Virus record (IMG/VR): IMGVR_UViG_3300042691_015921 | Source of the DNA: a virus | DNA: 64,000 bases | Direction: 5' to 3' (one strand) | In this document: piece after piece, positions 35,363 through 49,707 of the stretch | Numbering within the stretch: the stretch's first letter is position 1 | Layout: every line of letters begins with the position of its first letter | Notes under the pieces: generated by a model | Seen by the model: only the letters and a program-made list of their open reading frames with translations | What the model was told of the DNA's origin: nothing | Database searches by the model: none | Position numbers and translations under genes: made by a program

Positions 35363-35366
35363 CTCG

Positions 35367-35585
35367 TCATTCCTTGCCATTCTCGTATCGCCCAAGTTCC
35401 AGGGTAAATGGCGGATTAATTTCATTACCTTCGTCATCCCATGTTCCATATCCATGGAATGTCACTCCGACTGCGAAACATTCCATTCCACGATGACTTT
35501 CTTCGATTTCCATAGTGACATCAAATTCAAGCATGAGATCAAAAAGTCTACGCTTGAAAGCTTCTCTACGATCCCAGCTACTCAT
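35367..35585 (-). CDS. hypothetical protein
   Basis: Tiled ORF. Confidence 0.7.
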   Translation of the reverse strand: MSSWDRREAFKRRLFDLMLEFDVTMEIEESHRGMECFAVGVTFHGYGTWDDEGNEINPPFTLELGRYENGKE

Positions 35586-35767
35586 GACCAGTCCTCCTCG
35601 TCCCGCCGCCGTCGCTTGGAGCGGGAATTAATTGCGTCCAGTTCTACCTCCAGACTCTCCACATCATCCTCCAGATCCTGAATATACTGGTAGATAACTG
35701 CGAAAGTTTCGGGGGAACAATTGTCCTGAACTTCCAAAAGAGCCTCGTTGATCTCACCGCTTGTCAT
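35582..35767 (-). CDS. hypothetical protein
   Basis: Tiled ORF. Confidence 0.7.
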   Translation of the reverse strand: MTSGEINEALLEVQDNCSPETFAVIYQYIQDLEDDVESLEVELDAINSRSKRRRRDEEDWS

Positions 35768-35898
35768 AGTTGACCACTCCCTGAATCAGACCGATAGTGC
35801 CGACAAAGAAAAGGAATAGGATCAGTTTGAGCATAGATTCTCCAAAGTTAGTGTAAGGGGGCAGGGAGGGGCGGCCCGATGCCGCCCCTCCCATTATA

Positions 35899-36801
35899 TC
35901 AGGCAGTCAACGCCATGACAAGGTTCTCTGCCTTGAGAACGCTGGCATCACTACCCGCCTTCAAGATGCGAGCAAAGTCGCTCTTGAATCCGGCCTTGGT
36001 CCGTGCATCGTGCTGCACGTAACCCTGGACGGCATTGAAAGCCTCCCACGCACTAACCTTGAAATCACTCCCCATGTCGGGGCGACCAGTCAGAACCCGC
36101 TCGCGGTAGAGACGCTGGAAAATCGCCTCAGTCCGATTCTTGTGGATCGTCACCGCAGTCTGGGACGCATCCGGGGCGGGCTGACCGTACACCTGATCCA
36201 GAAAACTCACCATCGACACTTCCCGATTCTGGAGGGTCAGAATCAGATCCCCCAGCGTACCCCACGACTGCTTGAGAAGCTGGAACGTCTGAATCAGATC
36301 GTCCATCTTGCTCCGCAGACCGGAAGTGTGCCGGATGGAAACCGTCGTGCCGCTCACCTTTCGCATGATGTAGAGATTGGAGCAAAGGTCACGCCAGTAC
36401 CCCATGCTGGCATGGAAAGCCTGACCATCGTATCCCGCCCGCACCATAATGCGGGGGAAGACGTTATCCGCAGTCCCGTAGACACTCAGACGCTGCTCCT
36501 TGGTGGGGGCAATCGCCACATAGTGACCGTTGCGGAAGTAGGTCTTGCAATCCACCTCCCCGTCGAAAGCCTCTGCGGCAGCATCGACCAGGGCACACAC
36601 ATCATCCGTCTGGTGGGGAACGTAACGACTGGTCACGCTGCCCGTCCCGACAACCTCAGAAGTGTCAGATCGGAACAGACCGTACCAGGGGGTGGTCATG
36701 CCATCCGGCCCGGCGAGGGGGAACTTGTCCACGCTGAAATCGAAAGCCGCACGAACGCTAGAGGAAACGTCGCTGGCCTGCTGCTTAGTCATCTTATTCA
36801 T
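35899..36801 (-). CDS. DUF932-like protein
   Basis: GSVTSRYVPHQ, AGYDG..F......R..CSN, SIRHT, SAWEAFNAVQGY. Confidence 0.8.
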   Translation of the reverse strand: MNKMTKQQASDVSSSVRAAFDFSVDKFPLAGPDGMTTPWYGLFRSDTSEVVGTGSVTSRYVPHQTDDVCALVDAAAEAFDGEVDCKTYFRNGHYVAIAPTKEQRLSVYGTADNVFPRIMVRAGYDGQAFHASMGYWRDLCSNLYIMRKVSGTTVSIRHTSGLRSKMDDLIQTFQLLKQSWGTLGDLILTLQNREVSMVSFLDQVYGQPAPDASQTAVTIHKNRTEAIFQRLYRERVLTGRPDMGSDFKVSAWEAFNAVQGYVQHDARTKAGFKSDFARILKAGSDASVLKAENLVMALTA

Positions 36802-36839
36802 CCTTTGTTGGAGTTACTGTCACCGTCACTTGTCCCCGG

Positions 36840-36945
36840 ATTCTACCAGGGTTATCGTCGTTTGCAAGAGGCGGGATTAACTTTTTTTCTCGTCCCGCGT
36901 TCCGCTCGACTCCCCCGATTCTACCAGATGGTATCGACATTGCAA
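36840..36945 (-). promoter_or_regulatory. two tandem sigma70 promoters (TTGCAA-N16-TAGAAT) each with internal CGATA
   Basis: 36840-36867 and 36918-36945. Confidence 0.75.
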
Positions 36946-36977
36946 CTAGGGGAGAAGAGTTTTTTTTCGTGATTCTT

Positions 36978-37075
36978 TGGTATGCCGTTTGCTATATGCA
37001 AATCCCGTGCCGGAAATTAATTCTCGTTTGGCACGATTTTTGCGAGCGGCCCAAAGCGGCCGCTCCGCTGCGGCC
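36978..37075. repeat. regulatory island 1: three sigma54 motifs + conserved hairpin
   Basis: +36978, -36997, +37029 GG-N10-GC motifs; hairpin 37044-37065. Confidence 0.85.
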
Positions 37076-37149
37076 ACTTAATGGGGTTGTATTAGAGTGC
37101 TACCCATTTTGCAACTGTCGGCGGGCTGGGTAGCCCCACCATAATTATG

Positions 37150-37416
37150 TCAGTATGTAGGGAGTTCAGCAATAATCTGCTTGGCAAAAAGATGGTTTGG
37201 CTGTCCCAAAACGTCTGCTTCTTCAAGATCATCACCCTTGTAACATCCAATATTCATACTGTACGGAAGAATAACATCAAGCGATCCATTGTAGTCTAAG
37301 GCAGCATTGCTAGGACGCAACTGAATCACCAGTTGTTTACCGCCAGGAAAATTGATGATGAAATCGCAATCATGATCTGGTGCTTCTTGATGAATCTCAG
37401 TGAACTTATAGTTCAT
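37150..37416 (-). CDS. hypothetical protein
   Basis: RBS AAGGA. Confidence 0.7.
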   Translation of the reverse strand: MNYKFTEIHQEAPDHDCDFIINFPGGKQLVIQLRPSNAALDYNGSLDVILPYSMNIGCYKGDDLEEADVLGQPNHLFAKQIIAELPTY

Positions 37417-37450
37417 TTCTATTTCCTTAGATTAGAGGTAAAGCTGCCAA

Positions 37451-37523
37451 TGCCCCCACTAGGACTTGAACCTAGAACCTATCGGTTAAAAGCCGAATGC
37501 TCTGCCAATTGAGCTATAAGGGC
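37451..37523 (-). tRNA. tRNA-Lys(TTT)
   Basis: GCCCTTA/TGGGGGC stem, TAGCTCAATTGGCAGAGC D-arm, CT-TTT-AA, GGTTCAAGTCC. Confidence 0.93.
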
Positions 37524-37531
37524 AACTATTG

Positions 37532-37915
37532 TTAGTTTCTTTCCTCAAGAATGTAGACTTGCCGGTCTTGAGTTACCAGGGTGGCATATTCATATCCGTC
37601 CCAGATGAACTCCCCGTCATCACTATCCCGCCTCCAGTGAGGATCGACAATAGGATTATAGAACAAACGCTCCAGATTGTCAACCGGAATATTTTCAGTC
37701 ACGATCAATTCCGCACACTCAATCCATCCCGCCACATCCTTAACGCCTTCGGCGTGGACCTTCTTAGCCTTGTTCACCTTGTTAACCAGCTTGCACTCAA
37801 GCATTTCTAGGGAATACTGCTTGGGGTCAAGATACCTAACAGCACTATCCGGCCCACGAACTTGCCACTTCTTGAAGTTCTCACCGCTTTGAAGATGGAA
37901 GCGAACCTTATACAT
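37532..37915 (-). CDS. conserved hypothetical protein
   Basis: MYKVRFHL..G.NF.KWQV..YNP...PHW motif. Confidence 0.8.
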   Translation of the reverse strand: MYKVRFHLQSGENFKKWQVRGPDSAVRYLDPKQYSLEMLECKLVNKVNKAKKVHAEGVKDVAGWIECAELIVTENIPVDNLERLFYNPIVDPHWRRDSDDGEFIWDGYEYATLVTQDRQVYILEERN

Positions 37916-37934
37916 TTCTATCTCCTTTTCCACC

Positions 37935-37962
37935 ATTCTACCATACTTTTAGTGTATGTCAA
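37935..37962 (-). promoter_or_regulatory. sigma70 promoter TTGACA-N16-TAGAAT
   Basis: Consensus match abutting tRNA-Glu 3' end. Confidence 0.85.
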
Positions 37963-37963
37963 G

Positions 37964-38035
37964 TGACCCCACGGGGAATCGAACCCCGGTTAACGGATTG
38001 AAAGTCCGCTTTCCTAGCCGCTAGAAGATGGGGCC
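37964..38035 (-). tRNA. tRNA-Glu(TTC)
   Basis: GGCCCCA/TGGGGTC stem, GCGGA-CT-TTC-AA-TCCGT, GGTTCGATTCC. Confidence 0.93.
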
Positions 38036-38040
38036 AACTA

Positions 38041-38241
38041 TCACTGTGGCTCCGCAAGAATTGGTGCTTCGCTGTCGTAATCCATATAGTAAATAATCGC
38101 GTCTTCGATGAGAGGAATCAGACGCTCTCGCATCTTTTTCAATTCATCATTAGAAAGACTAGGGTAGTCCAGAGCCTCTACCCATGACTGAAAGAACGCA
38201 TAGTCAATCAGGATCGAAGAAGTTTGTGCAAAATTACTCAT
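38041..38241 (-). CDS. hypothetical protein
   Basis: Start trimmed to MSNFAQ. Confidence 0.65.
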   Translation of the reverse strand: MSNFAQTSSILIDYAFFQSWVEALDYPSLSNDELKKMRERLIPLIEDAIIYYMDYDSEAPILAEPQ

Positions 38242-38401
38242 CGTTGATTGCCTTTCGATTAGCGGAACCACGGGTTCGTTGACGCTTGGGACGGCTGTCG
38301 TGCAATCCACTCCCCGACCTGTGGGGGCTGTGACCCTTGCCCAATTCCCACACCGGGCGGATATTGAGTTGGATTGGTTCGTATTTGCGGGACTTGCTCA
38401 T
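38234..38401 (-). CDS. small basic protein
   Basis: GH..HRSGSGLHD.RPKRQRTR; overlaps tail of next ORF. Confidence 0.55.
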   Translation of the reverse strand: MSKSRKYEPIQLNIRPVWELGKGHSPHRSGSGLHDSRPKRQRTRGSANRKAINDE

Positions 38402-38609
38402 GCCATTTTCCATCGGGGTGAAGGTGATACAGTTTACCACTGTTTGGATTAAATGCAACTTGCCAAGTCATAATCGGCTGTGGCTGTGCATACGATTCCT
38501 GAACGATTACCTGGGGAGGAAGCATCGGCATCTGCTGATACTGCCTCCAACCATTATACGCCATTCCTACGATTGTCAAGCCAATTCCAATCCATTGGAT
38601 CATAGTCAA
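38259..38609 (-). CDS. membrane-anchored Pro/Gln-rich protein
   Basis: N-terminal TM; RBS AGGAG. Confidence 0.6.
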   Translation of the reverse strand: MTMIQWIGIGLTIVGMAYNGWRQYQQMPMLPPQVIVQESYAQPQPIMTWQVAFNPNSGKLYHLHPDGKWHEQVPQIRTNPTQYPPGVGIGQGSQPPQVGEWIARQPSQASTNPWFR

Positions 38610-38803
38610 CTCCTATTAAAACTAGCCCTCGCTCCAAGAACCATGCACAACCACATCGTCGCAAAGAAAGTCTTGATAGTGACCGGGATGCTAAGACCAA
38701 ACAGGAGATTCAGACTCCAGATGGTCAAAATCGGACCAAGGACAAGCATCACGATAAAGAAAAGAACCATCAGAAGAATAAGAAAGCCAGTTCCGTCAGT
38801 CAT
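38606..38803 (-). CDS. small membrane protein
   Basis: GPILTIWSLNLLFGLSIP. Confidence 0.7.
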   Translation of the reverse strand: MTDGTGFLILLMVLFFIVMLVLGPILTIWSLNLLFGLSIPVTIKTFFATMWLCMVLGARASFNRS

Positions 38804-39030
38804 TTGTTCCTCAAAGTCGGGAGATAGTAAAGATCGTACACTTCTTGCCAAGTCGGCATCTTGTGCCAGGGATCACCCTCATTCACACAGATACCATCAT
38901 TGTCATACACATCATAAAAGTCAACTGTTCTTGAATCAAATCCGTCAGAGTCATCATAGCAGGCGACCACATGAAAGATTCCAAGCGGCCAATTGCGGTC
39001 GTACAAATACGTCGCCACTTTCTCATTCAT
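38800..39030 (-). CDS. hypothetical protein
   Basis: FYDVY...C.NEGDP...PTW. Confidence 0.7.
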   Translation of the reverse strand: MNEKVATYLYDRNWPLGIFHVVACYDDSDGFDSRTVDFYDVYDNDGICVNEGDPWHKMPTWQEVYDLYYLPTLRNK

Positions 39031-39242
39031 CTTCTACTTCCTCGTAGTCCACATCGTGACAGTCACATTCCGTACAGATGTTATTGTCAAACGTGGTGTA
39101 GGTAGTCCCGTCAAGGTGTGCCCAGGCGTCGAAAACAACTTCGCCGCCACATTCCTTACATCTAGCCCACATGGTGTTTCTCCTTTACCCGCATGGTGGG
39201 GGCATGGCATTGTGCCACACCCCCACCACACAGTCAAGTCCC

Positions 39243-39461
39243 TCACGAACAGGACGGATCGACCATCCGGTCACACCGCAGGGTACGGACCTTGTTGTCC
39301 GCACTACGGATGCGGGCATAGGGACCGTTGGGGCCGAACCCGACGATCTCCACCACGCCGGCGTGGAACTTGAGGACGTTCCGACGACCGTGCTTGGGGT
39401 ACTTGCACACAAGACGCTGACCGGCCGAAATCGACAGGCCCGTGAAAACGTTCATTTTCAT
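39243..39461 (-). CDS. small SH3/WYL-like beta protein (paralog of 43258..43464)
   Basis: YPKHG..NVL...G...GPNG...VRTLRCDRM. Confidence 0.7.
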   Translation of the reverse strand: MKMNVFTGLSISAGQRLVCKYPKHGRRNVLKFHAGVVEIVGFGPNGPYARIRSADNKVRTLRCDRMVDPSCS

Positions 39462-39486
39462 TTTCCTTTGTGAAGTGGTACTAACT

Positions 39487-39522
39487 CTATCGACATTCTA
39501 CACAGAAAACTTTAGAAGTCAA
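39487..39522 (-). promoter_or_regulatory. nested sigma70 (TTGACT-N16-TAGAAT) / sigma28 (TAAAG-N15-GTCGATAG) promoter
   Basis: Both motifs on minus strand. Confidence 0.8.
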
Positions 39523-39803
39523 GCCTCAACGGGCTGGCTTGCTTCCTCGACAGTCTCGACAGCCTCGACCTTGACCTTCTTCTTCTTCGGAGGCTTGGGA
39601 TTGGCAAGGCTCACGCCCATACGCCGCTTCGCCCAAACCTTAAGACCCTGCGTACCAAGATCAGTGATATCGTCAATGTTCACGGCGTCGTAGGTGCGGC
39701 CATGCACACCACGGACAGCCTTAGAAAGACGCTGACGAACATCAATCACATCGACCTCATGACCATCCGACACAATCTCGACCGTAAACGTAAACTTCTG
39801 CAT
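39519..39803 (-). CDS. hypothetical protein
   Basis: RBS AAAGG. Confidence 0.7.
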   Translation of the reverse strand: MQKFTFTVEIVSDGHEVDVIDVRQRLSKAVRGVHGRTYDAVNIDDITDLGTQGLKVWAKRRMGVSLANPKPPKKKKVKVEAVETVEEASQPVEA

Positions 39804-39821
39804 TATTAAAACCTTTCAAGT

Positions 39822-40316
39822 TTAGAACCAATAGGGCCGACACCGACCCTTTTCCCATTTAGCGAACCTAACCTTGTCCCGCCTGTAGTAAGTCCTATAG
39901 GCTTCCACCGCATCAGGATTCCGGTATTCATCCGGCATGGCCTGTGCGAAATCCGTCATTGGGACGTTGGGGATATTATCCCACAAGGTTCCCATTCTGT
40001 CAATACCTTTCTCGCAAAAATGTTCCTTGCAAAACCTCAAGGAATATTCCTTGCAAAGTTCCTTCCCGTGGATATACGCCCAGGCAAAGTTAAGCTTGGA
40101 ATCGCCAACCCAACGGGTACAGGGGTGATTGTGATATCCGCCCGCGAGAGGCTTTCCAGCCTTTGTCAAGGGCATATCCTGATCCTGAACTCCATGACGA
40201 CGGAGAGCAGACCCCATTTGCTGGTAGAGTTCAACCACCATCTTGGGGACATGCTTATCACAGTAGAACTGTGCCGCAATCTTGGGATCGTTATCTAGGA
40301 CGAAGATATTCATCAT
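39822..40316 (-). CDS. pyrimidine-dimer DNA glycosylase (DenV)-related protein
   Basis: MNIFVLD..P..AAQ..CDKHV.KM..E..Q, YHNHPCT.W, FAQAMPDEY, AYR.YY. Confidence 0.8.
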   Translation of the reverse strand: MMNIFVLDNDPKIAAQFYCDKHVPKMVVELYQQMGSALRRHGVQDQDMPLTKAGKPLAGGYHNHPCTRWVGDSKLNFAWAYIHGKELCKEYSLRFCKEHFCEKGIDRMGTLWDNIPNVPMTDFAQAMPDEYRNPDAVEAYRTYYRRDKVRFAKWEKGRCRPYWF

Positions 40317-40333
40317 TTGCTCCTGTGTGACTT

Positions 40334-40361
40334 ATTCTACACTACTTATCGGCCGAGTCAA
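40334..40361 (-). promoter_or_regulatory. sigma70 promoter with perfect GCCGATAA in spacer
   Basis: TTGACT-CG-GCCGATAA-GTAGTG-TAGAAT. Confidence 0.8.
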
Positions 40362-40393
40362 GCATCTGGGATAAAAAAAAGAAGAATTTTCTT

Positions 40394-40440
40394 TGGCACG
40401 GTAATTGCGAGCGGCCCAAAGCGGCCGCTCCGCTGCGTCC
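40394..40440 (+). repeat. regulatory island 2: sigma54 motif + hairpin
   Basis: TGGCACGGTAATTGC-GAGCGGCC-CAAAGC-GGCCGCTC-CGCTGCG. Confidence 0.85.
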
Positions 40441-40475
40441 CTTACTATAAGGAAAGCAACGGTTTGGCCCTTTGG

Positions 40476-40718
40476 TCACTTGTAAGTGGTTACAGCCAGG
40501 GTGCAATCCACGATATGATCAATGGTTTCTTCACTCTTCCAATATCCAAACCTATTTTGGCTAAAACACCAAACATTATTAGGTACAATTTCGGACATAA
40601 GTTTGATGTAGACCAGATCATTCCATGTGAAAGTTTCACCAATATTAACAGCCCCAAAAGTAGTCTTAGAAGGACTTCTGACGTTATGCTTAACCGTGAT
40701 CATTCTTATCTTCTCCAA
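40476..40718 (-). CDS. hypothetical protein
   Basis: Tiled ORF. Confidence 0.65.
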   Translation of the reverse strand: MEKIRMITVKHNVRSPSKTTFGAVNIGETFTWNDLVYIKLMSEIVPNNVWCFSQNRFGYWKSEETIDHIVDCTLAVTTYK

Positions 40719-40923
40719 AAGTGCAACAATCGTAATCCAACAATTCGCTATTTACTTCAAGGATTTCCTTCGTCAATTCACTATCTGGCATTTGAGAAAT
40801 AGCCTCAGTCAGATAGTAGTGAAGCATATCCTCCATTTTTCGCATATCAAGACCATCAATGATATTTTCTACATACCTATTGATGATACATGCACGGTTG
40901 GAACTATTGATTTCAATCGCCAT
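40690..40923 (-). CDS. hypothetical protein
   Basis: Start MAIEIN, RBS GGAG. Confidence 0.7.
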   Translation of the reverse strand: MAIEINSSNRACIINRYVENIIDGLDMRKMEDMLHYYLTEAISQMPDSELTKEILEVNSELLDYDCCTFGEDKNDHG

Positions 40924-41164
40924 TATCTTCTCCGAAGATGTTATCCCAATGTTCCGGGTCAATCCCGCTCATGCACAGTTCACGATCATCGGCAGATAAA
41001 TAGGGAAAGCAATCCTGGGTAAGACCGCCATTCAACCACCTATTCATATCCGCCAAGTTGACGGTAACAGTAAACGGCTTTCCGTTAATACTCTCACCTT
41101 CCATCATCAGAATCTTCCCGTTCACGCTGACGGTTTTCTTACAATTCTCAAGGGCGTATCGCAT
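40913..41164 (-). CDS. conserved phage hypothetical protein
   Basis: W..G.L.QD.FPYLSADDRE...SGI.PE.W..F motif. Confidence 0.8.
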   Translation of the reverse strand: MRYALENCKKTVSVNGKILMMEGESINGKPFTVTVNLADMNRWLNGGLTQDCFPYLSADDRELCMSGIDPEHWDNIFGEDNGD

Positions 41165-41167
41165 AGT

Positions 41168-41398
41168 TCACTCCTTATTCCAGCCGGATTGTTCCATGAT
41201 ATCGTCAACTGAAAAGACTGCGGTCAGTTCATCGGCGGTTTTCTTAGTGCGGAATCCCCTCTCGTCAACAGTCATGAACCTGTCCAGTTCGTCATTATCA
41301 TTCGTCTCCCAGATAGCGGCACAAGCCGCCTCCATAGGAGTTTTGTTAGTAGAGTAGATTAGTTCCAGCGTCCCGCAGTTAATGTAATACTTAGGCAT
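41168..41398 (-). CDS. hypothetical protein
   Basis: MPKYYI..G..VDERGF; start trimmed. Confidence 0.7.
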   Translation of the reverse strand: MPKYYINCGTLELIYSTNKTPMEAACAAIWETNDNDELDRFMTVDERGFRTKKTADELTAVFSVDDIMEQSGWNKE

Positions 41399-41597
41399 TG
41401 TTAAACTCCGTGTGGTAGTATTCCATGTCTGTGTCGCAAACCACTTCCGCCTCCCCGTCAGCAAATCTTGCACCACAAACTGGTGTTCCATGCTTCTCAT
41501 AATAGCAAGGACTGACGTATTCCTCCGTTCCACAGGATGGGCAACACCATAGGTGTCGGATTTGCCGGTCATTAATTATAACCCAATTCTCATTCAT
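41391..41597 (-). CDS. small zinc-ribbon protein
   Basis: CCPSC...GTPVC...CD.DM.Y. Confidence 0.7.
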   Translation of the reverse strand: MNENWVIINDRQIRHLWCCPSCGTEEYVSPCYYEKHGTPVCGARFADGEAEVVCDTDMEYYHTEFNNA

Positions 41598-41916
41598 GGC
41601 ACGATCCTCAGATGATTAATGAGATAAATGATAATTTCAAGCAATTTCCATACACCTAGAGGAAAAACAACAAATACACTAAAAAAAGCCAGCAAAATCT
41701 GTAGATGAAAACTTGTTTCTGACATCATTTTGCCTTTACAGTAATGGTCTGTTCTTCAGTGTCAATCTCTAGGGTCACAATTTCATCATACCTAAAAAAC
41801 TTATCAGTCACTTGTTTAGCCTGCATTTCAATATCAGGCGGCAAATCCTGAAAAGCGTAGTATAAAGCGTCAGGGGTTTTCATCATCACTTCAATTTTCA
41901 TAATATTTTATGCCTT

Positions 41917-42621
41917 TCAATGGGAGGGGAATAAGACGTTGGCCAAACCCTTGACGCACATCCGGCAGGCGATATCGTTTTTCGCCCCCGTGCAAGTAAC
42001 TTCCGACCGTCCCCGGCGAATCTCCGGGCAAGTGACAAACTTTTCCCCATTCAGGATAACCAGTTTGGGGAGAGACTTCCGCCATGCATCAGCCTTTGCC
42101 TTGCCACGAGGCCGCTTGGGGGCAATCTTCTGGTCCGAATCGCACCATGCGAATCGCTTGAACCCTGCCGCCATAGCCAAACCCATATCTTCATGGTTAT
42201 GGATACTGGCATAGACCGCCATATACTTATCCAGACCGGCGAGAACGTCGTCGTAGATATGAGTATAGAACCACATGTCGGGGAGGTCAAGCCCATCGGC
42301 CAGAATACTTTCGCAAGCCTCAATGACGTTGGCAATGTAGTTGTGGTCGAGTTGACCGTTCAGGAACCAGTCACCCCGTTCATGCCACCGGATCGACTTG
42401 CCCCGCTTGCGGGCGTCCAGAATCATCGCCCGGATACGATTCTTCTCCGTAATGATATTCTGGAATCCGGCGGGACGGACGGCGGGATACTGCTTTTCCG
42501 ATTGTTCAGCATAACAGCCGTTGTTGAGATATGCACACGACGAGGGGCAAGTATCCCCCACGGGGCGAGACACCACAACGCAACCCTTGCCAAGTTTATC
42601 GTTCCCGTCAGCGATTTTCAT
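41917..42621 (-). CDS. Cys-cluster protein related to phage gp88 / radical-SAM-like proteins
   Basis: GN.KLG, TCPSSC....GCYA, IRWHE.GDW, YTH, TCP, C..C; start trimmed. Confidence 0.65.
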   Translation of the reverse strand: MKIADGNDKLGKGCVVVSRPVGDTCPSSCAYLNNGCYAEQSEKQYPAVRPAGFQNIITEKNRIRAMILDARKRGKSIRWHERGDWFLNGQLDHNYIANVIEACESILADGLDLPDMWFYTHIYDDVLAGLDKYMAVYASIHNHEDMGLAMAAGFKRFAWCDSDQKIAPKRPRGKAKADAWRKSLPKLVILNGEKFVTCPEIRRGRSEVTCTGAKNDIACRMCVKGLANVLFPSH

Positions 42622-42644
42622 CGTATCCTCCGTTTGATACTTGG

Positions 42645-42763
42645 ATTCTACACTACTTATCGACAATTGCAAGAGCGAATCTTAAACTTTTTTCTTTTAC
42701 CCGTCGTTCGCTTGTGTGCCCCGATTCTAGCATAGATATCGACACTTGCAAGCAGAATCTTTC
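42645..42763 (-). promoter_or_regulatory. two tandem sigma70/sigma28-like nested promoters
   Basis: TTGCAA-N16-TAGAAT at 42645 and 42724, both with GTCGATA; TTAAG/GAAAG 15-16 bp upstream. Confidence 0.75.
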
Positions 42764-42783
42764 CGGGGAATCTTATTTTCTTT

Positions 42784-42846
42784 TGGCACGATAATTGCGA
42801 GCGGCCCAAAGAGGCCGCTCCGTCGCGGCCCCTGCCATTTTGGCAG
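42784..42846 (+). repeat. regulatory island 3: sigma54 motif + hairpin + CTGCCATTTTGGCAG
   Basis: Direct reading. Confidence 0.85.
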
Positions 42847-43191
42847 GCAATCACTCCTCGTTCAGTACAATAGTGTCGATCCAGCAAGAGAAAGAATAGC
42901 CTTTCCGAGACATTTTCTCTTTCTCCATGCGGGCAATGGCTGTTTTGAGATTTTCATACGCCGCAATATTGAAGTAATAGCCTTCACCATGCTTAATGAT
43001 GGCATAGATATTCTTCATTTCACAACACCTTTCTTATGAGGCAAGCTAATCATGGCATAGATATCAACAATGATCGTTCCGGAGGGGAAGTAATTGTCGA
43101 TATCATGGGTCAAGATGCACGTTGCCATTGGGATACTATCATTGGTTTCTTTATAAACCACATAGTAACAGTTCATGATTTCACCTAGAAG

Positions 43192-43248
43192 AAAAAGGGT
43201 GAGCGGCCCCGCCCATTTGTCAAAGAACGGGTCTTATGGGCCGCTCAC
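43192..43248 (-). terminator. intrinsic terminator containing a boxA-like element
   Basis: GTGAGCGGCCC/GGGCCGCTCAC stem, T-run; GTTCTTTGACAAAT inside. Confidence 0.7.
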
Positions 43249-43257
43249 GCGGGGGGA

Positions 43258-43464
43258 TCAAAGGGACGCGATGCACTTCCGCAGGGAGAGGGAGCGAATC
43301 TCCCCGTTCTTCTGCTGGACCGTGATGCCCCGACCGTTGGGGCCGGTGAAGCTCCGGACCTTCACACCAACAACCCGACGAAGCACGTTCTTCGTGCCGT
43401 GGACGGGGTAAAGAACAGAAACCGTCCGACCATTGTTCCGCTTGTACAGGTTAGCCATTGTCAA
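43258..43464 (-). CDS. small SH3/WYL-like beta protein
   Basis: YPVHG..NVL...G...GPNG...IRSLSL. Confidence 0.7.
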   Translation of the reverse strand: MTMANLYKRNNGRTVSVLYPVHGTKNVLRRVVGVKVRSFTGPNGRGITVQQKNGEIRSLSLRKCIASL

Positions 43465-43602
43465 TCATCCTTTCGATCTGGGTAAAAGAGAAATACTGGA
43501 TACCACTCTCTCCGACCACTCCAACACGATCCTTGCGAATCGAAACCACCGTACCACTTGGGAGAACAGTCCCAAGTCCAACAATCGGCTTTTGCTCACT
43601 CA

Positions 43603-43923
43603 TCAGCTAACCCTTTCGGTAAAAACTTCCCTCACGGTCCCATCGGCGTAGAAAATCCTAATGTCTGGGCTAGTCCAGCCAAAGCCATTGGCAAGGTATT
43701 GGGCGTGTTCCTCAACGGAGTTGAAAACAATATTGCCATATTCCATCGGGTAGGACTCACCATCATTCCATGGATTATACCAGCGGTCGCCACCAAGGCT
43801 TTCGGCCTTTTGGACTGCCTCTTCCACGCTATCCGCCTCAATGAACATCAGATGGAAAACATTGTCGTCAGTGATGAAACTACCACCAACGTTAATCTGG
43901 TCGAACTGGAAAAACTTGCTCAT
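43603..43923 (-). CDS. conserved phage hypothetical protein
   Basis: F.F.Q.N.GG.F......IEADS.EEA...GDRW; RBS AAGGAG. Confidence 0.8.
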   Translation of the reverse strand: MSKFFQFDQINVGGSFITDDNVFHLMFIEADSVEEAVQKAESLGGDRWYNPWNDGESYPMEYGNIVFNSVEEHAQYLANGFGWTSPDIRIFYADGTVREVFTERVS

Positions 43924-43943
43924 TGTTTGCTCCTTATTCCATC

Positions 43944-43971
43944 ATCCTACCACACTACGCGTGAATGTCAA
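43944..43971 (-). promoter_or_regulatory. sigma70 promoter TTGACA-N16-TAGGAT
   Basis: Consensus match with upstream A/T tract. Confidence 0.8.
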
Positions 43972-44069
43972 GAGAAAAAAATAAGTTAGTGCCGTGCTAC
44001 GCTAAGTCACTTCTGCAAGCAGAAGGCTTCTCTTGCTTTACGATCACGGTCACTAACTATTTTTTAGCG

Positions 44070-44240
44070 TCAGTAGTTATCCTCGTCGTCGTCCCACGGA
44101 TCATCCGGGGCAAAATCCTCGTCGTCGTCGCCGGTCATGATATCATCATCATCCAAGAAATCCTCGTCAAAGCCGTCATACGTCGCGGCCTCAATCATAT
44201 CATCATCGTCTTCGTCGTACAGGGGGTCCGGGTGACTCAT
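44070..44240 (-). CDS. 56-aa hyper-acidic protein
   Basis: 28 of 56 residues D/E, no K/R; RBS AAGGAG. Confidence 0.7.
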   Translation of the reverse strand: MSHPDPLYDEDDDDMIEAATYDGFDEDFLDDDDIMTGDDDEDFAPDDPWDDDEDNY

Positions 44241-44256
44241 GACATTTCTCCTTTTA

Positions 44257-44460
44257 CTAGATTTGCCAATATCCGTCAACAAACAGGGCGAACCTCGGGG
44301 AAATCCACACCATACCAGCGTCCCCTACGTGCCCAAGATTGTATTTGACACTGGTAACGTCGGGGAAATACTTTCGGGCCATGTTCATCGCGTCGAGTCG
44401 GTCTTTACCGCAAACAGCACCGGCAAGAAACCCATCCACGAAGACTTCAAGTTTCATCAT
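44257..44460 (-). CDS. hypothetical protein
   Basis: RBS GGAG, promoters upstream. Confidence 0.7.
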   Translation of the reverse strand: MMKLEVFVDGFLAGAVCGKDRLDAMNMARKYFPDVTSVKYNLGHVGDAGMVWISPRFALFVDGYWQI

Positions 44461-44479
44461 TTCCGTCTCCCATTTCCTT

Positions 44480-44584
44480 ATTCTACCTTATCGGCAATCG
44501 AAGTCAAGGGGATTCAATCTTTTTTTTCTTTTCCCTACCCCGTTGGGTTGTGCGTTCATTCTACCATAGATATCGGCTTGTCAA
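44480..44584 (-). promoter_or_regulatory. two sigma70 promoters with GCCGATAA / GCCGATAT in spacers
   Basis: 44480-44507 and 44558-44584. Confidence 0.75.
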
Positions 44585-44615
44585 CTAGGAAAATCCACGA
44601 AAAAAAGATTTTCTT

Positions 44616-44727
44616 TGGCACGGGGTTTGCTAATGCAAGTCTTGTGCCGAACTTTCTTTTTCGTTTGGCATGGCTTTTGCGAGCCGCCCAAAGCGGCGGC
44701 TCCGTCGCGGCTCTGCCATTTTGGCAG
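44616..44727. repeat. regulatory island 4: three sigma54 motifs + covariant hairpin + palindrome
   Basis: +44616, -44634, +44666; GAGCCGCC-CAAAGC-GGCGGCTC 44681-44702; CTGCCATTTTGGCAG 44713-44727. Confidence 0.85.
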
Positions 44728-45001
44728 GTACTATGGTAATAACACGGCGGGGGAGTGTTACTGTCCTCCCCTGCCATGCTACTATTTACTTTTTCCCATC
44801 TCTTTCTTTTAGGAAGCAGTGTGAATGAGTAGTAAAAAGGCGGGTATAATCACTAGGTTTGCCTCCATACTTTTTAGCCCTCTCCTGTGCAGAAGGAGTT
44901 AGTACAATCTCTTGCTGGCAGATTCTACATTTCATATTGTTATTCCTTGTTCTTGGTTTATTTGTCGTTCACCTTACATCACCTCAGCGTACCACAATCG
45001 T

Positions 45002-45340
45002 TCACGCTGTCAAGCAATCGCGGTGGATCGCCACCCAATCCTTTGTCACCACCGCTCCGTCCACGAACGGAACGTGATTTTCGAAAAACCATTCGAAGTT
45101 CTTCTGGTAAATGCGGAAAGGACTGTACTTGTTGATCCTGTCCTTTGTGGTATGGGTTCTCCATCCACCGCTCCTGATGGTAGCGGAATCGTCTGGATGG
45201 ATCGTCACCACGGGGGTAGCATGGAGGATAATCGCCACACTTCCACAGGGGAGGATTTCCGCACGGGTATTGTTGCCGATTTTGCGGCGACTGGCGGAAG
45301 TCTTACCCTTGACCATCTTCACTGCGTCAATGTAATTCAT
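45002..45340 (-). CDS. conserved phage hypothetical protein
   Basis: KIGNNT..LH.T.VV..GGWRT.TTKDRIN..IYQKNF.WF. Confidence 0.8.
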   Translation of the reverse strand: MNYIDAVKMVKGKTSASRRKIGNNTRAEILPCGSVAIILHATPVVTIHPDDSATIRSGGWRTHTTKDRINKYSPFRIYQKNFEWFFENHVPFVDGAVVTKDWVAIHRDCLTA

Positions 45341-45534
45341 TCTGCCCTCACGAAAAAAGGATGATCGTCACAACTCATCTTCACCAGCCAATTCCGGCCC
45401 GATCCATCTTCCACGGAAATGCTATTGACCATTCCGGTCGCCTGCCTTCCCGAACAGAGTAGGATAGTAACTACCTTTCGGGTTTGCATGGCTTCACAAA
45501 GCCAAGTAAAAGAGTAAACGGGGGGTGCGGTCAT
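45337..45534 (-). CDS. hypothetical protein
   Basis: VNSISVEDGSGRNW. Confidence 0.7.
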   Translation of the reverse strand: MTAPPVYSFTWLCEAMQTRKVVTILLCSGRQATGMVNSISVEDGSGRNWLVKMSCDDHPFFVRAE

Positions 45535-45613
45535 ATTTCACCTTTTGTGGGATAGTGGGGGCGGGTTTTACCCCGCCCCACAGTGTACCAGTTATTCCCG
45601 ATTGTCAAGCTCC

Positions 45614-45763
45614 TCACCAAAGGTTTTTCATTGAGCAAAATGCCTTTGCGTTTTGACAGGCGAACTCTCCGTAGAAAACTGCCACGATTCGGTTTCCTAC
45701 GGCTGCGTGCAAGTCGATTACCGAGTACCCTTCCTCGCCGTGCCGAACGGTTTCGTATCGCAT
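45614..45763 (-). CDS. hypothetical protein
   Basis: Start MRYETV after AAGGAG; promoter 45786-45813. Confidence 0.65.
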   Translation of the reverse strand: MRYETVRHGEEGYSVIDLHAAVGNRIVAVFYGEFACQNAKAFCSMKNLW

Positions 45764-45809
45764 TTCCGCTCCTTTCGTTTTGTGGATTCTATCACACTTT
45801 CCAGCCCCG

Positions 45810-46124
45810 TCAAGGGGAGGGGGAAAACTTTCCCCCTGCCCCGGACGGTTGGAGGTTACGGGCAACTTCGATCCATTTGGCCACTTCTTCCGGGGTCTGC
45901 CGGGCCATTACGTCGTCATGCTCTTGGATACGGTAGAACTCACCATTGGGGAGAAGAATAGCTACTTCCGCCGTTGTGGATTCCCATTGAAGTTTTCCTC
46001 GCTGCGAACCATACTCTACGTTGTGATAATGGTCACAGTAGTTACCCGGCCCCCACTGGACGGAAATTGTGCAACCATTCTGGAACTTGATTTGGAAACC
46101 CTTGCCATCGGTGATCGAAAACAT
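45810..46124 (-). CDS. conserved phage hypothetical protein
   Basis: GFQI.F.NG.TISVQWG.GNYC..AEVAI. Confidence 0.8.
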   Translation of the reverse strand: MFSITDGKGFQIKFQNGCTISVQWGPGNYCDHYHNVEYGSQRGKLQWESTTAEVAILLPNGEFYRIQEHDDVMARQTPEEVAKWIEVARNLQPSGAGGKFSPSP

Positions 46125-46214
46125 GCCAGCTTTCCTTTACTTGGGGTGAATTGTGAACGGGGTTTTGTTTCATTGTCCCCGTCCTAAACGCCATAGGCGT
46201 CTCTTGCGATTATA

Positions 46215-46475
46215 CTAGGCGTTGTCCAGTTCGTCAAGCCTCTCCTGATCGGCAATCCAACGGTCTGCCCTAGATTCCGGGAAAATACCCGAAAAGCTGG
46301 TCTGCTGCACCCACCCCCGATTGTGACTGAATCTCTCCACCGCCACCGCATCGGGATTCAGCCAAACCTTACGATATCGCTTCCCGCGAGTCCCGCCGTC
46401 AAGCCACGCCTCATATTCGGCCCGGTCCTCATACGTCTGCAATTCCGCAAACTGTCCGAAAGTGAAGTTGTCCAT
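46215..46475 (-). CDS. hypothetical protein
   Basis: Promoter 46505-46532 upstream. Confidence 0.7.
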   Translation of the reverse strand: MDNFTFGQFAELQTYEDRAEYEAWLDGGTRGKRYRKVWLNPDAVAVERFSHNRGWVQQTSFSGIFPESRADRWIADQERLDELDNA

Positions 46476-46528
46476 TGTTTTTTCCCTTTACTGGTGATTC
46501 TGGGATTCTACCACACTTTTCGGTTTCG

Positions 46529-46744
46529 TCAAGCTATTTCTTTGTGTGCTTCCCACGCATCGGCAATATTCTTCGACCGGATGAAGTCCCTATATCCCAA
46601 TTCAATTCGAACAACATTATCGACGCTTGCGGGGTTTTCCACGAAAGCCGCCAATTCTTTCATGAGGCTTTTCGCTTCCGCCACCGCCTTGTTCATATAG
46701 ATACGGTGGCAACGATCCAACTTCTCGTTGATATCCATGTTCAA
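46529..46744 (-). CDS. hypothetical protein
   Basis: RBS GGAGG; promoters 46762-46789 and 46839-46866. Confidence 0.7.
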   Translation of the reverse strand: MNMDINEKLDRCHRIYMNKAVAEAKSLMKELAAFVENPASVDNVVRIELGYRDFIRSKNIADAWEAHKEIA

Positions 46745-46867
46745 CCTCCGGGGGTGTTTCTATCTTACACTATCGGAAATCGTTGTCAAGCGGTTTTCTT
46801 CGTCGTGCCGTTGAATCCTTCCCATGTGTTGTATCGGCATTTTACTCCCCCGACATGACTTTGCAAG

Positions 46868-47041
46868 CTTACAAAACTGTAAGGTTCCTAACGACATTGT
46901 AAGCTGTCATTTTGGCAGTTGGCATGGGATTTGCTAGCCGCCATATTGGCAGGGCGATTGGCACACGGTTTGCTGTGGCCTGCCATTTTGGCATTGGCAC
47001 GGCATTTGCGAGCGGCCCAAAGCGGCCGCTCCGCAGCGGCC
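46868..47041. repeat. regulatory island 5: CTTAC-N6-GTAAG, three alternating palindrome/sigma54 units, hairpin
   Basis: Palindromes 46904, 46938, 46980; sigma54 + at 46920, 46959, 46995; hairpin 47010-47031. Confidence 0.85.
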
Positions 47042-47135
47042 ATTAGCCTTTATTCTCCCGTGCCCTTTTTGGAGTTCCGCCGCGTCCATCCGGGGTTAGG
47101 GGGGCGGTTTCCCGCTCCCCCTGTCCCCTGGAAGT

Positions 47136-47336
47136 TTATCCTACGCGAGTCATGAAAACCCTTGCGATTCCGCAAGTCGAGATGCTCCATCCCTGCTCGT
47201 CCCAAATCCACGGAGGAAGCCCCTTCGCGTCGGGCGGGAAATACCCGTCAACGTGGATCATCCGATCATCCCCTTCCATCCGCTGGACGGCACAGCCATC
47301 CTCTTCAAGCCGCTTGATCATTTGTTCGACGGTCAT
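47136..47336 (-). CDS. hypothetical protein
   Basis: Start trimmed to MTVEQ; promoter 47357-47384. Confidence 0.65.
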   Translation of the reverse strand: MTVEQMIKRLEEDGCAVQRMEGDDRMIHVDGYFPPDAKGLPPWIWDEQGWSISTCGIARVFMTRVG

Positions 47337-47419
47337 GATTGAACCCTTCGGGTGAGAGTGTACCAGATTTTCCAGCCCCGGCAAGGGGAGGGGCGGTTTC
47401 CCGCCCCTCCCCGTTTGGG

Positions 47420-47935
47420 TCAGCCGATGATGTACTCCGAACCTTTCATCCGAATCGACCGGATGTTCTCCACCGCGAAATCCCGGAGCATGATAGCCTT
47501 TTCCGTTCCCTGCCGACCACTGTGGCGGGCGGGCGGAAGCCACTTCGCCACTTCCTCCGGGTCCACGGGGGAAAGGTCGGGCATGATGTAGGCGATAACG
47601 TCGCTCCGCTCCACCTTCGCTTCGATGTACCACTTATCCTTATGGTAGACGAGAGGCGTGCCCGCGATCCGCTCCCCCCACTTCCGGGGTTCCGCGATGA
47701 AATCGGCCACCATCCCCTCACGCTCCCGCTGCCGGTTGACGGCAGACTCATAATTGAAATTGAGAACCCCGTTGACCTTGCGGACAAGCCGCAGACCGGG
47801 GTACGGGTTGCCAGCCCGCAAACGCGGTTCCGTGGATGCCACGAAGGAAACCATCGTCGCACCTTTCACGGAGTGAAGCATGGCGATAAGATCGGACGCA
47901 GAGATACCGATACGATTCGCAATCGTCGCAGACAT
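47420..47935 (-). CDS. phage protein with possible Sm/SH3 (WYL_2-like) fold
   Basis: NPY....K.NG....NYE.AVN.QREREG, WG, HK.K.Y, RDFAVENIRSI. Confidence 0.75.
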   Translation of the reverse strand: MSATIANRIGISASDLIAMLHSVKGATMVSFVASTEPRLRAGNPYPGLRLVRKVNGVLNFNYESAVNRQREREGMVADFIAEPRKWGERIAGTPLVYHKDKWYIEAKVERSDVIAYIMPDLSPVDPEEVAKWLPPARHSGRQGTEKAIMLRDFAVENIRSIRMKGSEYIIG

Positions 47936-47983
47936 TGTGAAATCCTCTTGAGTGTCGCGGGTTTTCCTCCCCGCGATGGTGTC

Positions 47984-48024
47984 ATTCTACCATCTATCAT
48001 CGGCGTGTCAACACCCCGACTTGA
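47984..48024 (-). promoter_or_regulatory. nested sigma70 (TTGACA-N16-TAGAAT) / sigma28 (TCAAG-N15-GCCGATGA) promoter
   Basis: Direct reading. Confidence 0.8.
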
Positions 48025-48026
48025 AG

Positions 48027-48272
48027 CTTACGGGATTGTAAGGTTCTCCCTTTGGCACAGCATTTGCTAGCAGCGGTATTACTATTCCTTTACTATCGTG
48101 TTACTATTCTTTTACTATCTGTTACTGTCATTTTGGCAGGATAGTAAACGTGTGCAAGTCCCGTGCCATTTGCCCTGCCATTTTGACACTGCCATTTTGA
48201 CAGCACTGCAACTCCCGTGCCAAACCGACTGCCATTTTGACAGCCGCCCAAAGCGGCGGCTGCGTTGCGGCC
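48027..48272. repeat. regulatory island 6: sigma54 motifs, four TG(C/T)CA-TTT-TG(G/A)CA palindromes, phased TTACTAT repeats, covariant hairpin
   Basis: sigma54 +48053, -48153, -48207; palindromes 48125, 48175, 48189, 48229; hairpin CAGCCGCC-CAAAGC-GGCGGCTG 48241-48262. Confidence 0.85.
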
Positions 48273-48398
48273 ATAAGCGTGGTTTTCGCGGGTTGTGATC
48301 GCTCTAAAAGCCATAATCTCCCCTATTCCCTACTAGAAGTCCCGTCGCGTCCATCCGGGTCAGGGGGGCGGTTTCCCGCCCCCCATGCCCCGTGCGGA

Positions 48399-48569
48399 CT
48401 ACTTCTTCCCGTCCTCCAGGGTGCGGAGAACCTTGTCCCTCTTGATCTGGTATTTCAGATCCTTGAGGACATACAAAACCATTCCCGCCTCATGGGAGGT
48501 CAGTTGGCGGCGAGAGTTCGCCACCTCCGTCAGCAGACGGATCGCATCATCCACGGTCAGGGAGTCCAT
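48399..48569 (-). CDS. hypothetical protein
   Basis: Start MDSLTV after AAAGG. Confidence 0.65.
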   Translation of the reverse strand: MDSLTVDDAIRLLTEVANSRRQLTSHEAGMVLYVLKDLKYQIKRDKVLRTLEDGKK

Positions 48570-48651
48570 GATTGAACCTTTCGCGTGAAACGTGAAACCC
48601 TTTTCCCCGTCCGGGGAGGGGGGAAACGCTCCCCCCTCCCCATTGTGCGGG

Positions 48652-48930
48652 TCAAGCCCGCACGAACCTACCATTACTCGCCCGCATCATCTTCCGAACT
48701 ACGGGGTAGACTTGCTTGCCACCCTCGCAAACCTTGACGATATTACGGAGGGTGAATGTACGATACGGCCCACGAATGTCGTCAGCCGGAATGCCGTCAA
48801 TCTTGAACAACTGATAGGGTCCGTTCTTGCCCTGATGCACCGGGCCAATCCAGTGGCCCGAATAGGTGGTGACGATGCCATTCTTTACGTACCACACCTG
48901 CGTTTTGACATTTTCCACGATTGCGGACAC
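48652..48930 (-). CDS. small SH3/WYL-like protein
   Basis: GTG start (MSAIVENVK); GKNGPY...YRTFTLRNI. Confidence 0.7.
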   Translation of the reverse strand: MSAIVENVKTQVWYVKNGIVTTYSGHWIGPVHQGKNGPYQLFKIDGIPADDIRGPYRTFTLRNIVKVCEGGKQVYPVVRKMMRASNGRFVRA

Positions 48931-49031
48931 TGTAAAACCCTTTCGTATTGGGAAAACTCCCCACCTTCCCACCCCCTAACGCTAGGGGAGGGGAGGGTAG
49001 GGAGGGGGCTTTCGCCCCCTCCCGATCCCCG

Positions 49032-49379
49032 TCACCCGTAGAACGGGCTTTCCCGATCCTCTTCGGCCTTTTCCATCTGGGCCGAATAGGCCACGACCAG
49101 TGCTTCCAGCCGTTCCTCCGATCCGGGCTTCCCAACGGGAACGATCATGCCATCGTCCCAACCCTTGAACCGCTTGCTGACCTTGACCTTGACCTTCCGG
49201 GCCTTGGGAACCCGGCGGGTCACTTCCGTCCGAAGGTAGGGACCGTCGTCCGTCCAGACCATGCCCAGCGTAGTCTCCACGAACGGAATCCCTGCCGCCG
49301 CCGCTGCCGCAAACAATTCTTCGGGCTTGTGAACCTTGACCAATTCCGTGCCGGTGACGATGGAAAAGATGGCAGACAT
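49032..49379 (-). CDS. hypothetical protein, first gene of leftward early region
   Basis: MSAIFS..., GKPGSEER..AL...Y...ESPF; RBS AAGGGG. Confidence 0.75.
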   Translation of the reverse strand: MSAIFSIVTGTELVKVHKPEELFAAAAAAGIPFVETTLGMVWTDDGPYLRTEVTRRVPKARKVKVKVSKRFKGWDDGMIVPVGKPGSEERLEALVVAYSAQMEKAEEDRESPFYG

Positions 49380-49439
49380 TGTAGAACCCCTTGAAGTAGG
49401 AAACCGATCCGAGGGACGCCCCCCGTGCCGAATAGCATA

Positions 49440-49576
49440 TGCACTCCCCGTGCCGAAACAAAAAAAATCCTAAGTCTAATCGTGGTAAGGGTTTACGATT
49501 TATGCCATTATGGCAGATTTCACAAAAACAGTGAGACGTTCACAAAAATTGTGAATCGCCTCCCAAAAATTGTGAA
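49440..49576 (-). promoter_or_regulatory. candidate sigma54 promoter with IHF-like site and upstream palindromes
   Basis: CGGCACGGGGAGTGCA 49440-49455; TAAGGGTTTA 49486-49495; TGCCATTATGGCA 49503-49515; TTCACAA-N3-TTGTGAA x3 49519-49576. Confidence 0.6.
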
Positions 49577-49707
49577 TCGCTCACCGATACGGGGAACGTG
49601 CATGGCGGGGGGTTTTCCGTTCAATCGGCAGGAGTCTGGCGAGATCGTCGCGGGCCGGGGGGGTTTTTCCGCAATATCCCTCTAGCTTAGTTAATGTATT
49701 GCCTCTA

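Follow-up and report, generated by a model that had tools for sequence, protein, structure and literature searches.

The subject of this report is a short GC-rich hairpin that occurs six times, always in the same orientation, in a 64,000-nt stretch of the genome of an uncultured freshwater phage (the IMG/VR record IMGVR_UViG_3300042691_015921, parent contig 130,685 bp); this whole stretch is referred to below as the window. We consider it likely that these hairpins supply the stem-loop of a composite intergenic boundary cassette, which is repeated within a plastic block of early genes and has its closest known counterpart in the PeSL cassettes of T4-type phages.

Architecture of the hairpins

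A degenerate pattern search of the window recovered exactly six hairpins, all on the plus strand, where none was expected from 100 shuffles, and thereby bore out the six co-oriented copies and the positions reported for them in an initial annotation made from the sequence alone. Each consists of a perfect 8-bp GC stem closing a 6-nt loop, and a pattern search of the 130,685-bp contig found no further copies. The loop is CAAAGC in five hairpins and CAAAGA in one, stem pair 5/18 is G-C in four and C-G in two, and pair 1/22 is C-G in a single copy. The sequence CGNNGCG(G/T)C directly follows the hairpin in all six copies, as had been noted.

37044-37074, plus strand: hairpin 1 with flank CGCTGCGGC; GAGCGGCC-CAAAGC-GGCCGCTC
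40409-40439, plus strand: hairpin 2 with flank CGCTGCGTC; GAGCGGCC-CAAAGC-GGCCGCTC
42799-42829, plus strand: hairpin 3 with flank CGTCGCGGC; loop CAAAGA
44681-44711, plus strand: hairpin 4 with flank CGTCGCGGC; stem GAGCCGCC/GGCGGCTC, pair 5/18 swapped
47010-47040, plus strand: hairpin 5 with flank CGCAGCGGC; GAGCGGCC-CAAAGC-GGCCGCTC
48241-48271, plus strand: hairpin 6 with flank CGTTGCGGC; stem CAGCCGCC/GGCGGCTG, with CTGCCATTTTGACAG in front and no sigma54 box

Windows of 47-86 nt spanning each hairpin have predicted folds of about -20 to -36 kcal/mol. No T-run lies within 10 nt of any of the stems on either strand, and with a GC-rich hairpin present and the adjoining U-tract absent these are not canonical intrinsic terminators, in agreement with the initial annotation. 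The spacings between copies are 1231, 2329, 1882, 2390 and 3365 bp. These follow only roughly the widening away from a 49.5-kb end that had been described, and 49.5 kb is a strand-switch region rather than an end of the genome.

Position between early transcription units

The hairpins are found within a block (34500-50300, minus strand) where small early genes stand close together, along with two tRNAs, and the GC content is about 50% in a genome of about 35%; related phages show the same jump, their loci rising from about 30% to 47-54% GC in 2-kb windows. Assignment of the block genes to the minus strand is supported by 4-nt overlaps, by ATG codons with a purine-rich ribosome-binding site (RBS), by the two minus-strand tRNAs and by Pfam or PHROG matches for six proteins, and it follows that the 'sense' direction of the hairpins, and of the sigma54-type boxes that adjoin most of them, is antisense to the genes. 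The initial annotation had missed this, and with it the location of each hairpin, behind the end of an early unit and ahead of the sigma70 promoter of the next.

Each hairpin sits in an intergenic gap. Read along the gene strand, the gap comprises the stop codon, 31-137 nt, GCCGC-NN-CG, the hairpin, an antisense sigma54 box, an A/T-rich tract, a sigma70 promoter, an RBS and an ATG, with additional sigma54 boxes or CTGCCATTTTGGCAG palindromes accompanying the box in the longer gaps. The promoters are near-consensus (TTGACA or TTGCAA, 16 nt, TAGAAT). There are 47 sigma70-like sites in the block against 18 expected, and nearly all of the strong ones are minus-strand sites that come shortly after a hairpin. 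Canonical terminators show no enrichment (18 against 17 expected).

36918-36945, minus strand: sigma70-type early promoter TTGCAA-16-TAGAAT of the next unit after hairpin 1, with a second copy at 36840-36867
40334-40361, minus strand: sigma70-type early promoter TTGACT-16-TAGAAT, separated from hairpin 2 by an A/T-rich tract at a distance of 48 bp
42724-42751, minus strand: sigma70-type early promoter TTGCAA-16-TAGAAT in the gap of hairpin 3
47984-48011, minus strand: sigma70-type early promoter TTGACA-16-TAGAAT in the gap of hairpin 6

On the minus strand of positions 34000-50500 of the window there are about 16 near-consensus promoters of the type TTGACA-16-TAGAAT, many of them with GCCGATA in the spacer.

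The phage and its relatives

The virus record has a CheckV completeness of 86% and encodes rIIA, DenV-like and Kyano_Gp96 genes, tRNAs, a RaK2-like large terminase and many proteins of unknown function, the early block in particular being rich in ORFans. The large terminase is closest to those of RaK2-like jumbo phages, at about 25% identity, and a megablast comparison of the block with GenBank phages gave no match. Relatives were found in environmental sequence: a GP88-like protein of the block, used as a query, identified 80 IMG/VR loci at 69-78% identity, on contigs as long as 238 kb. The clade is present in runs from at least 14 studies, and a relative of one of its genes is encoded on 121 IMG/VR stretches; no RNA run is listed among those containing this phage.

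Exact-pattern scans located the same hairpin unit in ten metagenome contigs and two IMG/VR contigs, and in three of the relatives (L097, L102 and L117) its order and orientation with respect to genes and sigma70 promoters are as in this phage. The unit is absent from all 80 GP88-linked loci, both by pattern search and by a covariance model (R1) run over 92 loci. A scan of IMG/VR with the exact hairpin returned unrelated terminator-like matches only, and looser scans were dominated by chance matches in high-GC phages, with filtering adding a single one (L093:226) among the matches listed. In a scan against Rfam 15 only two tRNAs passed and no family overlapped any hairpin, and a scan of GTDB with one genome per species gave 12 single matches, mostly in high-GC genomes and none of them multi-copy, which indicates that this is not a host repeat family. 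The possibility that the motif belongs to a family already described, such as host REP elements, had been raised at the outset; neither of these two scans turned up such a family.

A 4.5-kb contig labelled as part of a Nitrospina metagenome-assembled genome (L353, CALAGQ010000056.1) carries the hairpin and flank with the loop TAAAGA, together with a stretch that is 70% identical to window positions 51013-51204, and is probably a related phage contig that was binned into the Nitrospina assembly. The tRNA-Glu gene of the block and its borders (37958-38036) are 100% identical in three relatives (L090, L095 and L096), in which the neighbouring genes are only about 70% identical.

Conservation of stem, loop and flank

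Covariation was analysed over 16 distinct hairpin copies from this genome and its relatives. Stem pairing is kept in 99.2% of cells; pair 1/22 is G-C in 12 copies, G.U in two, A-U in one and C-G in one, and pair 5/18 is G-C in 14 copies and C-G in two. No shuffle matches the observed covariation score and slid registers collapse. Double changes affect two of the eight stem pairs, the other six being invariant or altered through one unpaired cell only, and the covariation is real but thin, reflecting perhaps three events. Of the earlier claim that the paired stem changes indicate selection on structure, what is borne out is that these changes exceed shuffled controls, in modest form and for two of the eight pairs.

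The CAAAG loop had been described as near-invariant, which is true inside this genome only. In relatives the loop varies freely (CTCCGG, CTCCGT, GTAAAC, CTACAG, CATAAG and TTTAAG) and one strain variant has a loop of 23 nt; this freedom argues against an RNA-binding protein that reads the loop. The flank CGNNGCGGC stays fixed across copies, and box, hairpin and CGNNGCGGC are conserved as one unit of about 50 bp with variable positions in between. Conservation of the stems together with free loops, including the one of 23 nt, fits a hairpin rather than a dimer site of fixed spacing.

Exchange of slots and shuffling of cassettes

Other inverted repeats take the hairpin's place in the slot upstream of DUF932 homologues in 29 related loci, which lies between the previous gene and an A/T-rich tract with a TTGACA-N17-TATAAT promoter. 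Here the slot contains either TAAGTCCTT-N7-AAGGACTTA hairpins, singly or in twos, or a pair of CTGCCATTTTGGCAG palindromes with a GC-rich spacer, and an antisense sigma54 box is present in some loci and absent from others. Such varied fillers imply that an inverted repeat is the shared property of the slot, the sigma54 box being frequent but optional.

The hairpin unit is also better conserved than its surroundings, at 87-100% identity against 65-72% for the adjacent genes in blastn comparisons, and gene content changes beside it. At unit 1, two relatives (L098 and L099) pass from the unit directly to tRNA-Lys without the 88-codon gene of this phage, and a third (L095) has a different gene there. 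An indel of 447 bp lies 36 nt from unit 2, seen in contigs from four freshwater runs and with 71-74 nt of support on the shorter side in three of them, and the segment 46202-46404 is replaced in freshwater-run contigs. The metagenome runs were compared as assembled DNA contigs, in which several short joints (a side of 25-36 nt) arise where repeated promoters or units match one another; these joints were not taken for recombination.

The TAAGTCCTT-N7-AAGGACTTA hairpins form a large family in their own right, with 353 distinct copies in the loci of relatives and many wobble and compensatory variants. They are often arranged in tandem, 53 nt apart, between genes genome-wide (L010-L089 and L363-L391; for example L025:3075/3128 and L010:6121/6174), and this phage has only one or two of them (window 49469-49497). 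Their wobble pairs in relatives do not clearly favour either strand (122 antisense, 90 sense), and an inference of strand from them is therefore not transferable to the hairpin studied here.

A boundary stem-loop as the favoured explanation

If the hairpins are the stem-loops of boundary cassettes, host sigma70 RNA polymerase moving leftward would transcribe the complete hairpin, and the resulting RNA stem-loop (predicted at about -17 to -20 kcal/mol) would attenuate read-through into the next unit or, alternatively, would block 3' exonucleases after cleavage in the A/U-rich tract. Each cassette would thereby become transcriptionally self-contained, and the conserved unit of about 50 bp would offer the homology for recombination that shuffles cassettes. 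We put forward this RNA-level mechanism (attenuation or 3' protection combined with a linker for recombination) more tentatively than the cassette itself, and judged from sequence features its chances seem a little below even. An RNA hairpin in early transcripts, as envisaged in the initial annotation, would be compatible with this boundary stem-loop.

Several observations weigh against the explanation. There is no U-tract after the stem on either strand, and classical intrinsic termination is accordingly not expected. The distance between hairpin and box is fixed at 0 nt for the majority of copies, with a 2-nt spacer in one copy from a relative, and that to the stop codon (31-137 nt) and to the sigma70 -35 element (48-230 nt) is variable. 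This suggests that the hairpin is tied functionally to the box and not to the gene upstream, and forms the best argument for the main rival explanation considered below. Gaps 5 and 6 hold another hairpin, of the G-run/C-run type with a GAAA loop, nearer to the stop codon. The stem is nearly invariant and its covariation derives from perhaps three events, and the outer-position G.T pairs found in two to three copies are wobbles only on the plus strand, antisense to the genes. Finally, the cassette model does not account for the joining of hairpin and sigma54 box at zero spacing, and it assigns no role to the conserved CGNNGCGGC flank.

The G-run/C-run hairpins belong to a second family in the early block (35864-35892, 47385-47412, 48363-48384, 48613-48641 and 49000-49023), with stems of 9-12 bp and a GAAA loop on the gene strand, and are reminiscent of the polyG/polyC stems of PeSLs. 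A further idea, that the hairpin assists in releasing a polymerase stalled at bound sigma54 holoenzyme, was set aside, as by the usual footprints the collision would precede transcription of the hairpin.

Sigma54-type boxes

In five of the six hairpins the stem begins at the base after the sequence TGGCAC-N5-TTGC, and a pattern search thus confirmed that the stem adjoins a sigma54 -12 element in five copies, as first reported. This box has 12 exact matches in the window against 0.25 expected, a 48-fold enrichment, and the boxes fit the extended sigma54 consensus TGGCAC-N5-TTGCW with the correct spacing.

37029-37043, plus strand (antisense to the genes): sigma54-type box TGGCACGATTTTTGC adjoining hairpin 1
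40394-40408, plus strand: sigma54-type box TGGCACGGTAATTGC adjoining hairpin 2
42784-42798, plus strand: sigma54-type box TGGCACGATAATTGC adjoining hairpin 3
44666-44680, plus strand: sigma54-type box TGGCATGGCTTTTGC adjoining hairpin 4
46920-47009, plus strand: three tandem sigma54-type boxes (46920, 46959 and 46995) with TGYCATTTTGGCA palindromes in between, the last box adjoining hairpin 5
48154-48222, minus strand: two gene-sense sigma54-type boxes (48154-48168 and 48208-48222) with palindromes in between
36978-37012, no strand assigned: face-to-face pair of sigma54-like boxes, GGTATGCCGTTTGC tatat GCAAATCCCGTGCC
44614-44651, no strand assigned: face-to-face pair of sigma54 boxes with a 17-pair hairpin fold, followed by a T-rich run on the plus strand

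The hairpin-linked boxes are directed antisense to the genes, into the 3' end of the one upstream, and are not placed to transcribe a downstream gene or RNA. Many of the 80 GP88-linked loci carry clusters of sigma54 boxes, and five near-complete relatives have them solely within an early stretch of 3-6 kb, a reversed control pattern giving 0 matches. A sigma70 interpretation of the box, with TTGGCA as the -35 element, was ruled out by the wrong spacing to any -10-like element.

Boxes that face each other across 4-5 nt create palindromes of 34-38 nt, which are present in many relatives also, and one such face-to-face palindrome has a terminator-like score with a T-rich tail. Palindromes of the CTGCCATTTTGGCAG type, with half-sites TGCCA/TGTCA, are repeated in the block (42831-42847, 44713-44727, 46905-46917, 46981-46993 and 48126-48242), two of them as follows.

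42831-42847, no strand assigned: palindrome CCTGCCATTTTGGCAGG, a motif that replaces the hairpin in relatives
44713-44727, no strand assigned: palindrome CTGCCATTTTGGCAG

In four relatives (L023, L029, L040 and L041) pairs of CTGCCATTTTGGCAG come directly after sigma54 boxes, separated by a 16-nt GC-rich spacer that contains GGCCGC or GCGGCC. The palindrome resembles the target of a DNA-binding protein that acts as a dimer and may be an enhancer-binding protein (EBP). The control region heading the leftward early block has a gene-sense sigma54-like box at 49441-49454, and at 49520-49585, the head of the block, are two direct copies of AAAAATTGTGAATCGC and a TGCCATTATGGCA palindrome.

Competing explanations

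The main rival to the boundary stem-loop holds that the hairpin belongs functionally to the sigma54 box, its palindrome spanning -11 to +11 of a divergent promoter and serving as a GC clamp or operator. The host sigma54 holoenzyme might dock there in a closed, non-productive complex that acts as an insulator, roadblock or sink, or the promoter might fire only with a special activator, in which case antisense RNAs would start within the loop, with a GGCCGC-N6-GCGGCC hairpin at their 5' end. The dead-end sigma54 trap of the initial annotation is retained as part of this rival. The argument draws on the zero spacing between TTGC and stem in five of the six copies and in nearly all relatives, on the conservation of box, hairpin and CGNNGCGGC as a single unit of about 50 bp, and on the consensus match, enrichment and early clustering of the boxes. 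A split between productive and locked sites would also fit the observation that gene-sense boxes, in some relatives, precede an A/T-rich stretch, an RBS and an ATG, whereas the hairpin-linked boxes run into GAGCGGCCC. Sigma54-dependent promoters have a precedent in Pseudomonas phage YuA, whose genome contains consensus -24/-12 boxes (PMC10914365, citing Ceyssens 2008), with the difference that the hairpin-linked boxes here are turned from the genes and lead into a GC-rich palindrome.

Against this, neither an EBP nor a sigma54, including its DNA-binding domain, was found in the contig or in the five near-complete relatives, and hairpin and flank occur without a box in hairpin 6, in the Nitrospina-labelled contig and in one strain variant. 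The 3' arm and the flank can form an alternative helix that is 95.8% paired, with five G.U pairs on the plus strand, a point in favour; this helix, however, shows no covariation and is broken in the two covarying copies, and it is the full stem that is maintained, which an RNA starting in the loop could not contain. A further point against this rival is that an 8-bp GC arm with a 6-nt spacer would be unlikely to extrude as a cruciform in vivo. On balance we regard a functional tie of the hairpin to the box as possible though unlikely. Less probable still, in our judgement, is the specific proposal that box, palindrome and GCGGCC flank form a docking unit which locks host sigma54 polymerase in a closed complex at every cassette boundary, as an insulator or terminator substitute or as a stress-response sigma54 sink, or which launches 5'-hairpin antisense RNAs that shut off early genes.

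A different possibility is that the unit is a duplex DNA site for a protein reading GCGGCC hexamers, of which there would be three, one in each stem arm and one in the flank, 12 bp apart and in alternating orientation, with the paired stem changes produced by palindrome correction through template switching and not by selection for folding. Such a site would account for a nearly invariant stem with a free 6-bp centre and for the third GCGGCC copy conserved in the flank; GGCCGC/GCGGCC cores are present between the CTGCCATTTTGGCAG palindromes of relatives too, and the palindrome half-site variants TGTCA/TGACA fit neither strand consistently as hairpins. It is difficult to reconcile with copies in which both arms have changed (GCCGCC/GGCGGC) and the third hexamer has not, with the lack of any copy in which only one arm has changed, and with the natural variant whose 23-nt centre breaks the fixed half-site spacing, and we consider it improbable. 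The nick, priming or ejection-pause signal of the initial annotation, that is, a single-strand DNA signal for a nickase or HUH enzyme, a primase or the packaging or ejection machinery (as with T5- or phiKMV-like nicks), found no support and seems very improbable: the hairpin with its conserved 9-mer, the strict co-orientation and the one-strand outer G.T pairs do resemble nic-site architecture, but the phage has no Y1/HUH transposase, the spacing gradient is weak, the uniform direction of the genes already accounts for the co-orientation, and the units go together with promoters and the boundaries of cassettes.

Comparison with known systems

The candidates listed in the initial annotation did not include the closest known system, the shuffling cassettes of the PeSL type. 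In T4-type phages (RB49/phi1, T4/PST and KVP40/nt-1) PeSL cassettes consist of a stem-loop, an A/T-rich tract, a sigma70 early promoter and a Shine-Dalgarno (SD) sequence and are found in hyperplastic regions; they recombine with each other, and a PeSL stem-loop that was tested cut downstream expression like a strong terminator (PMC2839356, PMC4122927). The cassettes described here are likewise repeated and intergenic, in a plastic block of small and mostly unknown early genes, and combine a stable GC-rich stem-loop with an A/T-rich tract and, after it, a sigma70 promoter close to consensus, an SD sequence and a start codon. They are also more conserved than the genes, with indels and swaps of genes at the cassettes. 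Three traits of a PeSL are present, namely a strong sigma70 promoter with A/T tract and SD/start, a stable stem-loop in the same gap and a hyperplastic location with indels and swaps; action as a terminator or attenuator and the formation of mini-circles are further PeSL traits.

There are also differences. All copies here share one nearly invariant stem-loop sequence with a conserved flank of 9 nt, placed 48-230 bp ahead of the -35 element, and joined to it is an antisense sigma54-type -24/-12 box, an element absent from PeSLs. The large terminase is RaK2-like, despite the presence of rIIA, DenV-like and Kyano_Gp96 genes. By analogy the element appears to work like a component of a PeSL cassette, and three things keep it apart from the PeSL members: the uncertain T4-type status of the phage, a terminator role that is putative, and the sigma54 box and conserved flank, both foreign to PeSLs.

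Two other groups of elements bear a more partial likeness. The REP/BIME elements of enterobacterial chromosomes are also short, GC-rich imperfect palindromes with a conserved flank and no U-tract, in intergenic or 3' untranslated positions, and REP elements can stabilise upstream mRNA; the hairpin, by contrast, is confined to one phage subclade, does not belong to a multi-copy host family and is not accompanied by a RAYT/Y1 transposase. Intrinsic terminators share the stable GC-rich stem-loop downstream of genes and differ in the U-tract, which is missing here.

Significance

PeSL-like cassettes are thought to allow large phages to gain, lose and exchange accessory genes without disturbing the expression of neighbouring ones, and the present findings extend this architecture to a widespread clade of freshwater phages. 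They also add an element that goes beyond the T4-type PeSLs, a consensus sigma54 box that is fused without a spacer to a conserved GC palindrome and faces away from the genes. Should sigma54 not bind there, the units would be an ordinary variant of promoter/stem-loop boundary cassettes. If the sigma54 holoenzyme does bind, they would represent a new phage use of the enhancer-dependent polymerase, whether for insulation, as a decoy or as an antisense switch, and were either docking or antisense RNA to prove true, this would be a previously undescribed use of sigma54 by a phage.

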